A stretch of 47,096 nucleotides of DNA from a virus (lineage: Duplodnaviria; Heunggongvirae; Uroviricota; Caudoviricetes), in the IMG/VR virus record IMGVR_UViG_2802429246_000002. One strand, given 5' to 3'. The translations under genes and the position numbers were made by a program. Shown one piece after another: positions 1,314 to 41,870 of this stretch. The notes beneath the pieces are model-generated. The model saw only the letters and a list, made by a program, of their open reading frames with translations, ran no database searches and was not told where the DNA came from. How positions within the stretch are numbered: the first letter of the stretch is position 1; the number at the start of each line of letters is the position of its first letter.

Positions 1314-1330
1314 AACAGAGGGTTTTGTTA
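1314..1330. repeat. Putative attL core (direct repeat AACAGAGGGTTnTnTTA)
   Basis: aacagagggttttgtta here vs aacagagggttgtatta at 41854..41870; flanking sequence also shares cataaaaa and aacc motifs. Confidence 0.45.
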
Positions 1331-1488
1331 CCAAAATATGCTGAAGCCTCGTACGAATAGAAAACCTCAGCATTTAGTGTTCGGGTTTATTCCCACTAAA
1401 TTATTTACGACACACATAACCATTTGACTGATAACAACTTTCTGAAACCTGATTTTCACCGTACCGTTTTATATACCGTCACCGGAAA

Positions 1489-1986
1489 TCAGTGCCACGA
1501 TTTTTGCTTCTTCAGTGAATCGTATTGCTGTTCGCAGGATTCTCCTGCAATCCGATACTTTTCAGCCTCAGCTGCTGTTGCGTTGTAAACTCGGTTGCTT
1601 TCTTCAAGCATGTCGGCGAGCACACCGATGACCTTGCTGGCTGGCGTGCCAGTGGGGAAAGATCCGGTATAGTGTTCGGCGAGTCGCTTGGTTTTGTCAA
1701 GCTCGGCGCGCAGGCTGTCAGCAGCGGCATTAGCATGCTCAGCATCAACACGCGCCACATCGATACGGGATTGTGCTTCACGTTCAATTTGTGTTTTCTC
1801 CTGATCACGTTGTGACCTGGCCTTATCATCAGCCTGTTTCTGATCTTCCTGTGCCTGCGCATACCCGGCGTCGTACTGACGAATGCCGTGTGCATTCCAG
1901 GCTACAACTCCTGATATGACCAGAACAGCAAGCATCGCCATGATAACCAACTGTTTCCAGTATGCTTTTGCGAATGCCCAGATCAT
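1489..1986 (-). CDS. Rz-like inner-membrane spanin (i-spanin)
   Basis: N-terminal TM helix followed by long charged coiled coil; start overlaps endolysin stop (ATGA); last gene of lysis cassette. Confidence 0.7.
1512..1763 (-). CDS. Rz1-like outer-membrane lipoprotein spanin embedded in the Rz frame
   Basis: Alternative frame inside the Rz gene encodes [17 protein letters not shown] (lipobox) followed by a Pro-rich segment; start codon choice uncertain. Confidence 0.5.
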   Translation of the reverse strand, partial: SMWRVLMLSMLMPLLTACAPSLTKPSDSPNTIPDLSPLARQPARSSVCSPTCLKKATEFTTQQQLRLKSIGLQENPANSNTIH

Positions 1987-2612
1987 AACGCCAGCACCTT
2001 ACTGGCAGTGATGTATCGCGCGCGCCGGTCATCAATGCCGTTCCGGCCACCATTGATAAGCAGAGTTACACGTGCAATATCTCCGGTATACTTCATGCAG
2101 CCTTTGCTGGAGAAGAACCACGCCGCGCTACGAGCCGCGTATTCGTCCTGCGCAAGCAGTTCAGGACTCTCCAGCAGGTCAACCTTAAGACCGTTTCCAC
2201 AGTCACGATAGTTATTCAAACCGGTAATCTGGATAAGTCCGCGCCCACGGTAGTTCCAGCCATCGCCAGGAGCATTGTTACCCATGCGTTTGCTGTACAC
2301 CAGATTGGCAATCGCTCTCTGGCGCTCAGGTGGCAATGGTGGTTCGCCTGCGCGTCGCCCCAATGCGTTGGCCTGTCCCTGAGTGAGACGCCCAGCCCGA
2401 ACAAAGTTAGCCAGTCCGCTGACGCTGTAGTTGAAATTTTCCTGCAACCGGGTGAAACCTCCAGACTCATGCCCGACCTGAGCAATAAACATTGCCTGAT
2501 CTTCTGGTTTGCTGATACCAAACTCTTTCATCGCAGAAGTTATATGCGAGAACCAGCGTGCGGCCAGCGCCTCGCTAATACCAGCAGCTCGCTGGAATTG
2601 TTTAATCTCCAT
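1983..2612 (-). CDS. Endolysin, glycoside hydrolase family 19 (chitinase-like)
   Basis: Motifs [10 protein letters not shown]...[12 protein letters not shown]...YGGRN typical of GH19 phage endolysins; start taken at MEIKQFQ (internal Met of the longer track ORF). Confidence 0.8.
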
Positions 2613-2805
2613 GTTTAGACCTCGATACTTTAAAAATTTGAACGACGTTACCGCGCGTTTTAATAACCGCAGCGAGCATGACAGCGTTGATAATGACCTC
2701 AGATAAATCCACAGCCATTGGCGTGCGGAACCAGATTGCATAGGCAACACGAACCGGAATACTGGCCGCAGCAACAATCAGGAAATAAGCAAGCCACCCC
2801 CCCAT
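2602..2805 (-). CDS. Small two-TM protein, possible holin/antiholin component
   Basis: 67 aa with two hydrophobic helices; sits between holin-like gene and endolysin; weak RBS. Confidence 0.3.
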
Positions 2806-2895
2806 CTTCGATGTTGAGATCCGTTACGCCGGAATGTGACAACACGAATTGCTATGCCAGTACAAATAACTGCATTGGTGATAAGCAAAAAAAAC

Positions 2896-3300
2896 TCATG
2901 CGTTACCATCGTCTTTTCTCCCCGGAATTAACTCGCGTGGATTATCGGAACGGTGGTAGAGCCATATACCAATACGCACAGCAACAATTGCTGACACGAA
3001 TGCGCCAGCAGAGAAAACAATCCCTTTTTCAAAAGAGTCCTGCGTGATAGTAGGGATCAGGCTGGCTATGCCGATAAGAATTGATGCTGCTGGTTTATAA
3101 AAAAGAAGGCCGCAGAGAAAGCTAAGCATCGACAAGAGTACACGACGACGAATGGGATACTCTACCGCAGAGGTAACAAAAATTACCGCTCCAGCCAAAG
3201 CCCCCAAAGCAACCTCAGGAGGAACTCCTGCTATCACCGCCGCCAGAGAACTCATGCTAAGCCACTGATTTAAAGTTTCACTGGTTAGTTGAGCTGACAT
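2896..3300 (-). CDS. Putative holin (multi-TM, charged C-terminus)
   Basis: About four predicted TM helices and a charged C-terminal tail; directly upstream of endolysin; start taken at ATG 3300 with GGTGGA RBS rather than the track GTG at 3309. Confidence 0.5.
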   Translation of the reverse strand: MSAQLTSETLNQWLSMSSLAAVIAGVPPEVALGALAGAVIFVTSAVEYPIRRRVLLSMLSFLCGLLFYKPAASILIGIASLIPTITQDSFEKGIVFSAGAFVSAIVAVRIGIWLYHRSDNPRELIPGRKDDGNA

Positions 3301-3491
3301 GTTTTCCACCGTTTATATGCATAACTACCTCCTGAACAGTAAAGCATTATGCATGATAAACCATTTATGGTTTTTTGTTACTTCAACATCGTCAATCCCC
3401 TGTTTTCATGCCGATAATAAGGCTCACCTTTTACATAACACTGAAGAAACAACAGTACAGAAATGATTCAAACTATGGAGATCGGGTTGAA

Positions 3492-3516
3492 TACCGCGCC
3501 ATCAAATGGCGCGGTA
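3492..3516. other. Perfect 10-bp stem-loop (taccgcgcca-tcaaa-tggcgcggta)
   Basis: Read directly in sequence between the small membrane gene stop and the holin gene; no adjacent U-tract on either strand. Confidence 0.5.
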
Positions 3517-40273: not shown

Positions 40274-40464
40274 ACAGGGCATCACCAGCAGATTTAAGGA
40301 AATGCCTTGAAACTGCAAACATGCTTGCACACAGCGGGATCAGGTTTGTTCCAATTCCCGCTGTCACTGATGCTGAATTTGCAACGCTGTCAGCAATATT
40401 CGCAGACAAAATTGAATCACTGGCAGCAGAAGCCGAGATGGAAGAAAATCAGCAGAACTATTAA
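40270..40464 (+). CDS. Hypothetical small protein
   Basis: 64 aa from MNRASPADLRKCL; ATGA overlap with methyltransferase stop. Confidence 0.4.
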   Translation: MNRASPADLRKCLETANMLAHSGIRFVPIPAVTDAEFATLSAIFADKIESLAAEAEMEENQQNY

Positions 40465-40467
40465 ACG

Positions 40468-41718
40468 TTATTCTCCCGCCATCCACTTCTCAAACTTCGA
40501 CGGGGAGAACGGAATCAAATCCGTATGCTCCCCGTTAATCCAGGAATCAATCATATCGGCCCACTGCTGCAACATGTAGGCGCGCTGTCTGGCGTATTCC
40601 GCTTTGTTATATACGGCGCGCACACTTTTCTGCTCATGTGCCAGGGCCTTTTCAATCCAGTCTGAAGGATAACCAGCCTCATGCAACAACGTACTGGCTG
40701 TACGGCGCATATCGTGTACGGTGAAGTCCTGAATATGCTCACCATCTTCATTTATTATTTTCACCGTTCTGTCGATCAGAGAGTTCAGCGCGGCATTAGA
40801 TAATGGCTTCCGGAAGTTGTAACGACCAGGAACCAGATATTCACTTCCACCAGCGCACATCTGCAACCCGACCAATATATCCTGTGCCTGTTTAGGCAGG
40901 TAAATAACGTGCGCCCGGCTTCCCTTCATGCGGTCTGAAGGAATTGTCCATGTCCATTTTTTAAAATCTATTTCATCCCACGTTGCATTGGTGAATTCGC
41001 CTTTACGAACCATGGTGATAAGCACCAGCTTTAAAGCCATTTTCATAGTGCCCATAGCACCAATGGCATCCAGCGTGCGGAAGAACAGGCCAACTTCTTC
41101 TGGTGTCAGTGTTCGCTCTCGTGGTTTAAATATGGCGATAGACGAAGGTTTAATGTCAGCCGCAGGATTAAACAAACCATGACCACGGTCATTGGCGTGA
41201 CGGTATACGCTGCTGATGATCTCCCTGGCCTGCACTGCTGTTGCCCGGCCACCGCGTTCGACAATCCGGTCACACAAATCACGAACCATCGATGTGGTAA
41301 TTTCAGCCATCATTTTGTTGCCAAGAACCGGAAGTATGTCACGGTCGATCACTGCCTTCTTCATTGCGCGGGTACTTTCAGCAAGGATGACGTGTTTCAT
41401 ATAACTGTCGGTATGTACCGTAAACGTCTCGGCACCACGAATCTTTTTGATACCGTCACGTTTAGCCGCAGCCGGTGACTGGCCTGCTTTAAGCAGCTTT
41501 TTTGCAGCAATCAGTTCTTCCCGCGCTTCTGCCAGGCTGATACCGTCACGCCCATACTGCCCGATTACCAGTGTTTCGCGGCGACCGTTGATACGGTAGT
41601 CATAGCGAAATGAGACCGTACCTGACGTAAGCACAGCTACATACAGCCCGTCACGATCGGAGACTTTGTACAGTTTGTCCTGCGGCTTGAGGTTTTTTAA
41701 TTTTGTATCGGTAAGCAC
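40468..41718 (-). CDS. int: Tyrosine integrase (P4-type)
   Basis: 416 aa; N-terminal arm-binding region LYVAVLTSGTVSFRYDYRINGRR and C-terminal catalytic region (HDMRRT...; conserved Y near C-terminus) typical of P4-family integrases; adjacent to attR. Confidence 0.85.
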   Translation of the reverse strand: MLTDTKLKNLKPQDKLYKVSDRDGLYVAVLTSGTVSFRYDYRINGRRETLVIGQYGRDGISLAEAREELIAAKKLLKAGQSPAAAKRDGIKKIRGAETFTVHTDSYMKHVILAESTRAMKKAVIDRDILPVLGNKMMAEITTSMVRDLCDRIVERGGRATAVQAREIISSVYRHANDRGHGLFNPAADIKPSSIAIFKPRERTLTPEEVGLFFRTLDAIGAMGTMKMALKLVLITMVRKGEFTNATWDEIDFKKWTWTIPSDRMKGSRAHVIYLPKQAQDILVGLQMCAGGSEYLVPGRYNFRKPLSNAALNSLIDRTVKIINEDGEHIQDFTVHDMRRTASTLLHEAGYPSDWIEKALAHEQKSVRAVYNKAEYARQRAYMLQQWADMIDSWINGEHTDLIPFSPSKFEKWMAGE

Positions 41719-41759
41719 AATTCACCCGTATAGAAACCATTTTCATGACGGTATGAGAG

Positions 41760-41776
41760 TATACCTTTAAGGTAAT
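41760..41776. promoter_or_regulatory. 17-bp inverted repeat tatacct-tta-aggtaat (site I) between integrase start and attR
   Basis: Same motif family with one mismatch in the left arm. Confidence 0.5.
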
Positions 41777-41837
41777 ACCGTCACCTGTACCGCCGAAAAA
41801 TATGGTGTAGAGTGAATAGAAATGAATACATAAAAAC

Positions 41838-41866
41838 AAAAACCCCCTGCAAAAACAGAGGGTTGT
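41838..41866 (-). terminator. Probable guaA transcription terminator (hairpin + T-run on minus strand)
   Basis: Minus-strand ccctctg-tttttg-caggggg followed by TTTTTGTTTTT, about 45 bp downstream of guaA stop; overlaps the attR repeat. Confidence 0.5.
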
Positions 41867-41870
41867 ATTA
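41854..41870. repeat. Putative attR core (direct repeat AACAGAGGGTTnTnTTA)
   Basis: Matches 1314..1330 at 15 of 17 positions. Confidence 0.45.

Follow-up and report, generated by a model that had tools for sequence, protein, structure and literature searches.

Attachment sites of a guaA-end Uetakevirus prophage in Escherichia marmotae and a predicted terminator pair at its ends

The 47,096-nucleotide stretch of DNA that was analysed here (the window) almost certainly holds a complete-looking prophage of the phiV10/epsilon15 type (Uetakevirus) in Escherichia marmotae, which a P4-type integrase inserted at the 3' end of guaA, within ATTCCCACTCAAT. The prophage is 40,524 bp long (1389-41912) and its attachment core is the 13-bp ATTCCCACTCAAT, with attL at 1389-1401 and attR at 41913-41925. 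The first-pass annotation had placed the prophage boundaries at a 17-bp imperfect direct repeat and the integration in the guaA terminator region. Alignment to prophage-free genomes of the same species gives different junctions, in a 13-bp core within the guaA coding end; the left junction is shifted rightward by 75 bp, and the right one by 55 bp, from the boundary that had been proposed for it. The chief value of this analysis is a correction of the annotation, by which the junctions lie inside the last codons of guaA and the repeat is probably a pair of terminators; the repeat that stands out most at the ends of a prophage is not necessarily the one at which recombination took place. The features, in window coordinates, are:

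160-678, yfgH, left host flank.
694-1236, + strand, yfgI (DUF5384), left host flank, from the ORF list; the exact protein is named as an Escherichia marmotae DUF5384 protein.
1253-1287, + strand, predicted intrinsic terminator of yfgI, 13-bp stem and T-run (terminator scan and fold).
1294-1330, - strand, predicted native host terminator of guaA, orphaned at attL; holds the left repeat copy (1314-1330) and is contiguous host DNA in the empty-site loci L151-L153 and L158.
1389-1401, attL core ATTCCCACTAAAT, the canonical ATTCCCACTCAAT with a private A at 1398; phage homology starts exactly at 1389, and the empty-site overlap agrees.
1402-1488, P' arm of the phage att region, with a predicted arm-type site ATACCGTCAC at 1473-1482; collinear with the attP of six phage genomes.
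1489-3309, - strand, lysis cassette (Rz-like DUF2514, GH19 endolysin, holins), the left-terminal phage genes, by Pfam and phage matches.
38973-39221, + strand, AlpA-family protein (Pfam PF05930, E = 3e-5), candidate excisionase or directionality factor, at the same position as PhiV10p36.
40468-41718, - strand, tyrosine integrase of P4 type, 416 aa (Pfam PF00589, PF13356 (Arm-DNA-bind_3) and PF22022).
41719-41912, P arm of the phage att region, with predicted arm-type sites at 41775-41784 and, inverted and with one mismatch, at 41745-41754.
41831-41864, - strand, phage-borne predicted intrinsic terminator, 10-bp stem and TTTGTTTTTA, which would now end guaA; holds the right repeat copy (41854-41870).
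41909-41925, 17-bp core of the literature, AATCATTCCCACTCAAT, the single exact match in the window.
41911-43488, - strand, guaA (GMP synthase, 525 aa), C-terminus ATIEWE followed by the stop; the exact protein is named as E. marmotae GMP synthase.
41913-41925, attR core ATTCCCACTCAAT, from the empty-site overlap and the published core.

The junctions were read from four same-species empty loci (L151-L153 and L158) and from a comparison of the reconstructed attP with six phages (phiV10, Phi05_2388B, ZX5, Tyrion, epsilon15 and PAT1). The prophage-free E. marmotae genomes match the window at 1-1401 and again at 41913-44761, with flanks that are 99.5-99.8% identical. In L151, 2308-3707 corresponds to window 1-1401 and 3695-6543 to window 41913-44761, and the two matches overlap by 13 bp, which are ATTCCCACTCAAT. 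On the phage side, phage DNA continues through the right repeat copy up to the core and resumes at 1389, collinear with the attP of all six phages. The four empty sites and the six attP sequences agree, no evidence contradicts the assignment, and we regard the junctions, the core and the origin of each arm as established. The 17-bp core attgagtgggaatgatt at the guaA 3' end was published for phiV10, epsilon15 and ZX5, and in ZX5 it was confirmed by PCR and Sanger sequencing (PMC9782041). In the window this core, which contains the 13-bp attachment core, has an exact copy only at 41909-41925, while attL carries its 13-bp part with one mismatch. The core covers the last four guaA codons (IEWE) and the first base of the stop, and the attP/attB identity in E. 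marmotae is 13 bp and not 17 bp because guaA ends there in TAA.

Based on the exact protein matches of YfgI and GuaA, the host chromosome is identified as that of E. marmotae, and the yfgH/yfgI gene order is the same in the empty-site loci. E. coli was considered as the host and rejected because the flanks are only ~92% identical across all 5426 E. coli genomes. When contigs were searched with YfgI, the matches came from Escherichia, Citrobacter and further species, with DNA identities of 88-92%, and the species of the window was not among them. The prophage itself is a Uetakevirus of mosaic make-up, with 97-98% identity to ZX5, TL-2011b and EC.W1-9; its left half matches EC.W1-9 (97.6% identity over 75%) and its right half ZX5 (97.6% over 84%), and it also matches phiV10, TL-2011b and epsilon15 with the similarity and collinearity of a Uetakevirus. 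The predicted genes cover a full set of modules (terminase, head-tail adaptor phrog_332, major head protein, tail, tailspike, lysis, replication, RecET, repressor, ant and Int) at the size of a phage genome (39-45 kb). PADLOC detected no defence genes among the accessory ORFs that were tested.

The integrase is the last phage gene before guaA, as the first-pass annotation had noted; it had also stated that epsilon15/phiV10-type phages integrate near guaA, which is correct by the genome matches and by the literature on this group (PMC9782041; PMC3293862). The protein has the arm-binding, central and catalytic domains of the P4/lambda type (E-values of 3.8e-20 for PF13356, 3.4e-12 for PF22022 and 2.9e-20 for PF00589), and it is identical to phiV10 Int at 410 of 416 positions without gaps (99%). 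The same int is present in 554 of 5426 complete E. coli genomes (about 10%), and it adjoins guaA in every full-length match listed among them. Predicted arm-type sites are repeated on both sides of the core. The motif ATACCGTCAC has five exact positions, each no more than ~720 bp from a core copy, where our own calculation gives an expectation of ~0.1 for an exact 10-mer in the window. Predicted arm-type sites GTGACGGTAT lie at identical offsets (-81, +141, +376 and +466) in five phages, and the epsilon15 record marks the motif at -81 as a binding site of the integrase. Two of the putative sites fall within the int ORF. A simple promoter scan gave no promoter-like site for int, and none was found by promoter scans at both junctions. 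The AlpA-family protein may act as the excisionase.

The course of integration is almost certainly that Int recombined attP site-specifically with the guaA 3' end, by an exchange within ATTCCCACTCAAT, which reads as the complement of the first stop base followed by the codons for E, W, E and I. The phage arm that comes to lie behind guaA supplies two stop bases (TAA to TGA), a 46-nt spacer and the predicted terminator at 41864-41831. The guaA stop is indeed TGA in the lysogen and TAA in the empty sites, and 41911-41912, the last two phage bases, give its G and A. The phage arm restores the gene end in this way and therefore the GuaA protein is unchanged, its C-terminal translation being identical to that of the empty site. 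The guaBA transcripts are predicted to end 47-80 nt beyond the stop, ahead of int on the same strand. Before integration, in the phage genome, this terminator is placed between the lysis genes and int. The native guaA terminator remains beside yfgI at attL. The earlier idea that integration rebuilds the guaA terminator from phage sequence holds, since the terminator that follows guaA after integration is phage DNA; yet the integration site is the last codons of the gene and not the terminator. A broader proposal, to which we give slightly less than an even chance, is that attP holds a captured enterobacterial guaA terminator in a gene-end cassette (four codons, stop, spacer and terminator). 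Such a cassette would offer a 13-bp IEWE-stop target across genera, keep the guaBA mRNA ends and shield int, and a C-to-A change in the attL overlap, templated by a quasi-palindrome, may have begun a lock-in.

This change concerns the putative strand-exchange region. A candidate 7-bp overlap, CCCACTC, sits between 10-bp inverted core-type repeats (GTTAATCATT and AATTATTTAC), a position that is predicted from the letters. A 9-bp inverted repeat of the canonical attP (CACTCAATT...AATTGAGTG) was also considered as the core-type sites, and it was set aside because its 19-nt spacing is too long and the 10-bp repeat around CCCACTC fits better. The attL and attR cores are not identical because attL has A for C at 1398, the last base of the candidate overlap. 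The A is unique to the window; the base is C in three same-species lysogens, in at least 120 IMG/VR contigs and in the six phages. A scan of IMG/VR for the A-variant attP/attL (ATTCCCACTAAATTATTTAC) gave one match only, in an unrelated coding sequence, and therefore the A is not a known phage variant. For lambda Int, recombination is known to be inhibited when the overlap sequences differ. The A at 1398 could lower excision or could be a sequencing error. One explanation is that the prophage is locked in or cryptic, with attL x attR recombination impaired by this base. The private A and its place at the end of an overlap flanked by inverted repeats favour such a state, but the overlap position is a prediction, Int, AlpA and the remaining modules look intact, and a single base may be an error; we consider this explanation possible but doubtful.

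Another question is where the terminators at the two ends come from. The phage hairpin (41864-41841) has 10 pairs, the tail TTTGTTTTTA and a predicted energy of -15.4 kcal/mol, that is, a GC-rich hairpin with a U-run on the transcribed strand as in intrinsic terminators. It is found in 6/6 free-phage attP sequences, and a terminator is annotated there in the phiV10 and epsilon15 records. The right repeat copy lies 47-57 nt beyond the guaA stop, in the 3' arm region of this hairpin, so the hairpin and T-run that the first-pass annotation had seen on the guaA strand are real. The native guaA terminator has a homologous hairpin in the E. coli attB and in 84 of 96 IMG/VR host flanks, and a private substitution weakens it here (-6.0 vs -12.7 kcal/mol). 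Terminator function, the position of the guaA transcript end and the shielding of int are all predictions. An Rfam search of the att regions gave no family.

The phage terminator looks homologous to the host guaA terminators. The phiV10 hairpin matches the native E. coli guaA terminator at 25 of 27 positions. The phage terminator matches two IMG/VR lysogen host flanks across 32 contiguous bases; at one locus of this class a yfgI homologue lies upstream, and its flank is therefore chromosomal. The CCCTCTG...CAGAGGG stem is seen in the same 84/96 host flanks, 25-66 nt from the core, and the phage hairpin is kept among Escherichia, Salmonella and Enterobacter phages that are just ~80% identical overall. 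Convergence or chance, by which GC-rich hairpins of separate origin, each with A and T runs, came to look alike, could explain why the two copies in the window share just 11 contiguous bases and why the native E. marmotae hairpin differs in its loop and has a bulge, but with the above matches against it we find it improbable. The descent could also have run in reverse, the native enterobacterial guaA terminator having been left by ancient Uetakevirus integrations, such as that of a prophage which was later deleted except for the phage arm behind guaA. Phage sequence does follow guaA once integrated, the terminators flank the prophage as direct repeats through which it could be deleted, and the stop-to-hairpin spacers vary widely across hosts (25-66 nt). 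However, the host spacers have no similarity to the phage spacer (GTATTAGTATCTGAATAGGA...), the host flanks show no arm-type sites past the hairpin, and in E. coli yfgI shares this hairpin, which is bidirectional; we find this origin improbable.

The repeat that was noted at the prophage ends can be understood from this terminator pair. The 11-bp AACAGAGGGTT is present exactly at 1314-1324 and 41854-41864, and its 17-bp extension (AACAGAGGGTTTTGTTA at 1314-1330, AACAGAGGGTTGTATTA at 41854-41870) is identical at 15 of 17 positions, as first described. Exact 11-mer direct repeats are not rare per se, with 537 pairs in the whole window; a shared element of at least 11 bases between both ~250-bp end regions appeared in 30 of 2000 shuffles (~1.5%). 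The end regions have three separate shared elements, namely the terminator, the arm-type site ATACCGTCACC and the core ATTCCCACT. The direct repeat is likely a pair of homologous terminators, one from the host and one from the phage, and no recombination product. The reading of the two 17-bp copies as attL and attR of a phage inserted in the guaA terminator region, although the repeat exists, flanks the phage genes and is seldom matched in shuffles, is already refuted by the alignments, since 1314-1388 is host DNA, contiguous in the four same-species prophage-free genomes, 41854-41912 (with 41871-41912 beyond the repeat) is phage DNA, contiguous in the attP of six free-phage genomes, and the published PCR-verified core is another sequence.

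The guaA-end att system is already known and published for phiV10, epsilon15 and ZX5 (vB_EcoP_ZX5), and its biology is standard. The prophage shares with these phages the integrase (99% to phiV10 Int), the 17-bp attP core, the target gene, the offsets of the arm-type sites, the phage-borne terminator and the gene order. It differs from them in the E. marmotae host, the TAA of guaA, the 13 instead of 17 bp of attP/attB identity and the private C-to-A in attL, and from phiV10 in its mosaic tailspike and accessory regions. As in lambda (Int, IHF, Xis), Int combines N-terminal arm-binding and catalytic domains, arm-type sites are predicted on both arms and an inverted-repeat core surrounds a 7-bp centre; IHF-like sites are annotated in the epsilon15 record. 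Unlike in lambda, int is transcribed away from attP, two predicted arm-type sites lie in the int ORF, and the candidate directionality factor is of the AlpA family and not Xis. Phage 21 and e14 (icd) and P4-like elements (tRNA genes) also enter a gene at its 3' end and bring a substitute for the part that they displace; the attP of such phages duplicates the target 3' end, so integration leaves the gene product intact. The target gene product is preserved here as well, but the duplicated coding part is very short (four codons and the stop) and the replacement reaches a look-alike transcription terminator. The additions to this known system are modest: a usable attB identity of just 13 bp in TAA-stop hosts such as E. 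marmotae, the private base in the attL core and a phage terminator that appears homologous to the guaA terminators of hosts, all three new but minor, and the swap of the guaA stop codon and terminator by the phage.

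The prophage is 40,524 bp long and lies between attL at 1389-1401 and attR at 41913-41925, since free phages, prophage-free sites and the literature, three independent comparisons, agree on these positions. The first-pass annotation had taken an imperfect 17-bp repeat (1314-1330 and 41854-41870) as the prophage boundaries and att duplication; the feature is real, but boundaries and att repeat were misassigned, as all three comparisons place the junctions elsewhere, and the system is already known.

1253-1287, the terminator of yfgI, the left host flank gene
1294-1330, minus strand, native host guaA terminator, containing the left copy of the repeat
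1389-1401, attL
38973-39221, AlpA-family gene, candidate excisionase
40468-41718, minus strand, integrase with arm-binding, central and catalytic domains
41913-41925, attR

Over its full length, window 40400-41900 aligns with phiV10 and with 16 further Escherichia phage records (97.3-97.9%), passing uninterrupted through the right copy of the repeat, and the left edge of phage similarity is exactly at 1389. When 41719-41912 is joined to 1389-1500, the product is collinear with the attP of phiV10, Phi05_2388B, ZX5, Tyrion, epsilon15 and PAT1. Same-species prophage-free genomes were located by exact-protein look-up with the window's YfgI. In one such E. marmotae locus, L151, window 1-1401 corresponds to 2308-3707 and window 41913-44761 to 3695-6543 (99.5-99.8% identity), with an overlap of 13 bp, ATTCCCACTCAAT, between the two, so that the empty site puts the junctions at the core instead of the repeat; empty sites in E. 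coli agree with this at about 92% identity. In the literature, phiV10, epsilon15 and ZX5 have attgagtgggaatgatt as their attP/attB core at the guaA 3' end, which PCR and Sanger sequencing verified for ZX5 (PMC9782041), and guaA insertion was also reported for TL-2011b (PMC3293862). The reverse complement of this core has a single occurrence in the window, 41909-41925. The interval 1314-41870 thus wrongly includes 75 bp of host DNA at its left end and misses, at the right, the 13-bp attR core and the 42 bp of phage-only DNA before it (41871-41912).

Read as a complement, the core covers the first base of the stop codon and then the GMP synthase codons for the residues E, W, E, I, and for this reason it is invariant across hosts in which the guaA stop is TGA or TAA. 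Judged by its exact YfgI and GuaA sequences the host is E. marmotae, where the native stop is TAA, and therefore the attP/attB identity is 13 bp, compared with 17 bp in E. coli. After integration the guaA stop is a phage-supplied TGA, and the protein still ends in ...ATIEWE. Another E. marmotae genome (L157; GCA_029719265.1, CP099344.1) carries a different element at this guaA core, at about 3695-3711 (ATTCCCACTCTATTATCAATCGAG...); the first gene of that element codes for a protein of 1365 aa that contains an HTH_3 domain.

The repeat consists of an exact 11-mer, AACAGAGGGTT, at 1314-1324 and 41854-41864, with 15/17 identity over its 17-bp extension. As described at first pass, the right copy is part of a hairpin on the guaA (minus) strand; it lies 47-57 nt past the guaA stop, the hairpin has 10 bp (41864-41841), and TTTGTTTTTA comes after it. 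As a statistic the repeat is weak: exact direct repeats of 11 bases number 537 pairs across the window, and a common word of at least 11 bases is found in both ~250-bp end regions in about 1.5% of shuffles. Host and phage terminators are very probably homologous, as suggested by the match of the phiV10 hairpin to the E. coli guaA terminator (25/27 positions) and by 32 contiguous identical bases, including the 3' AAATT, between the phiV10 attP terminator and the host flanks of two IMG/VR lysogen loci (L049 and L130). Lysogen locus L099 has an enterobacterial flank of the same class, with a yfgI homologue upstream. The same CCCTCTG...CAGAGGG stem is found 25-66 nt from the core in 84 of the 96 IMG/VR host flanks beside attL.

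The proposal that the phage rebuilds the guaA terminator was correct. The terminator with the right copy occurs in each of the six free-phage attP sequences that were compared, and the phiV10 and epsilon15 records both label it as a terminator. It now stands behind the guaA stop, whilst the native terminator, contiguous with guaA in empty sites, is left beside yfgI. Behind the stop, phage DNA provides a 46-nt spacer and then the terminator. From the geometry, with int next in line on that strand, the terminator should also halt guaBA read-through into int; in the free phage it would separate int from the lysis genes. The phage terminator has a predicted stability of -15.4 kcal/mol, against -12.7 for the native one of E. 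marmotae and -17.8 for that of E. coli. The orphaned native terminator carries a private substitution at 1301 (AAAAAAACCTCC here vs AAAAAACCCTCC in eight same-species loci), which is predicted to weaken it from -12.7 to -6.0 kcal/mol. At 1338-1373, a hairpin with a 13-bp stem (ATGCTGAAGCCTC...AACCTCAGCAT) separates the native terminator from the position of the native guaA stop. It is specific to intergenic regions of the E. marmotae type; attB of the E. coli K-12 type lacks it.

The integrase is, as first annotated, the last phage gene before guaA, and it is identical to phiV10 Int at 410 of 416 residues. The arm-type site GTGACGGTAT occupies offsets -81, +141, +376 and +466 relative to the core, both in the window and in phiV10, epsilon15, Tyrion and PAT1, and the epsilon15 record annotates these four as integrase-binding. 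Within the int ORF the arm-type site ATACCGTCAC has three exact copies (41450-41459, 41540-41549 and 41197-41206); two of them (+376 and +466), conserved in five phages and among those annotated in epsilon15, both code for RDGI within the arm-binding domain. At the core, GTTAATCATT and AATTATTTAC flank the 7-bp CCCACTC as an imperfect inverted repeat of 10 bp, matched at 8/10 positions here and at 9/10 in epsilon15 and Tyrion, which would be the expected layout of core-type sites and overlap region.

The last base of this candidate overlap, attL position 1398, is A in the window and C in six phages, in three lysogens of the same species and in at least 120 IMG/VR contigs. When the A variant of the core was scanned for, the sole match was an unrelated sequence. 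The A could be a sequencing error. The C-to-A change also perfects an inverted repeat with host bases 1372-1379 (ATTTAGTG / CACTCAAT), raising it from the 7/8 of empty sites to 8/8, the signature that would be expected from a quasi-palindrome-templated mutation. Such a C-to-A mutation could lower excision.

By sequence comparison the prophage is a mosaic Uetakevirus, with 97.6% identity to EC.W1-9 over 75% of the length of its left half and 97.6% to ZX5 over 84% of its right half. Its genes cover terminase, head-tail adaptor (phrog_332), head, tail, tailspike, lysis, replication, RecET, methylase, repressor and anti-repressor. The guaA site is widely used: int is present in 554 of 5426 complete E. 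coli genomes, and every one of the full-length int matches listed for E. coli adjoins guaA. No contiguous yfgI-guaA match was found in 867 E. coli genomes, and therefore the interval is probably interrupted there.

Low-GC (about 40%) stretches lie at 3847-6588 and 9202-11203. The low-GC tailspike (913 aa, with pectate-lyase-like and K1-lyase Rider domains) is unlike that of phiV10, and no O-acetyltransferase like phiV10 oac was found among the ORFs examined. Two other low-GC ORFs, of 288 and 283 aa, have only function-unknown PHROG matches. A tRNA-Arg (anticodon TCT) lies at 26985-27061, between the head-tail adaptor gene (24657-26336) and the terminase large-subunit gene (27922-29391); the annotations of O157 typing phages 9 and 10 include it too. 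Rfam isrK (77.9 bits) and C4 antisense RNA (77.7 bits) at 7957-8032 and 8057-8142, directly upstream of a Bro-N anti-repressor gene (8190-8885), make this region a P1/P7-type antisense immunity module.
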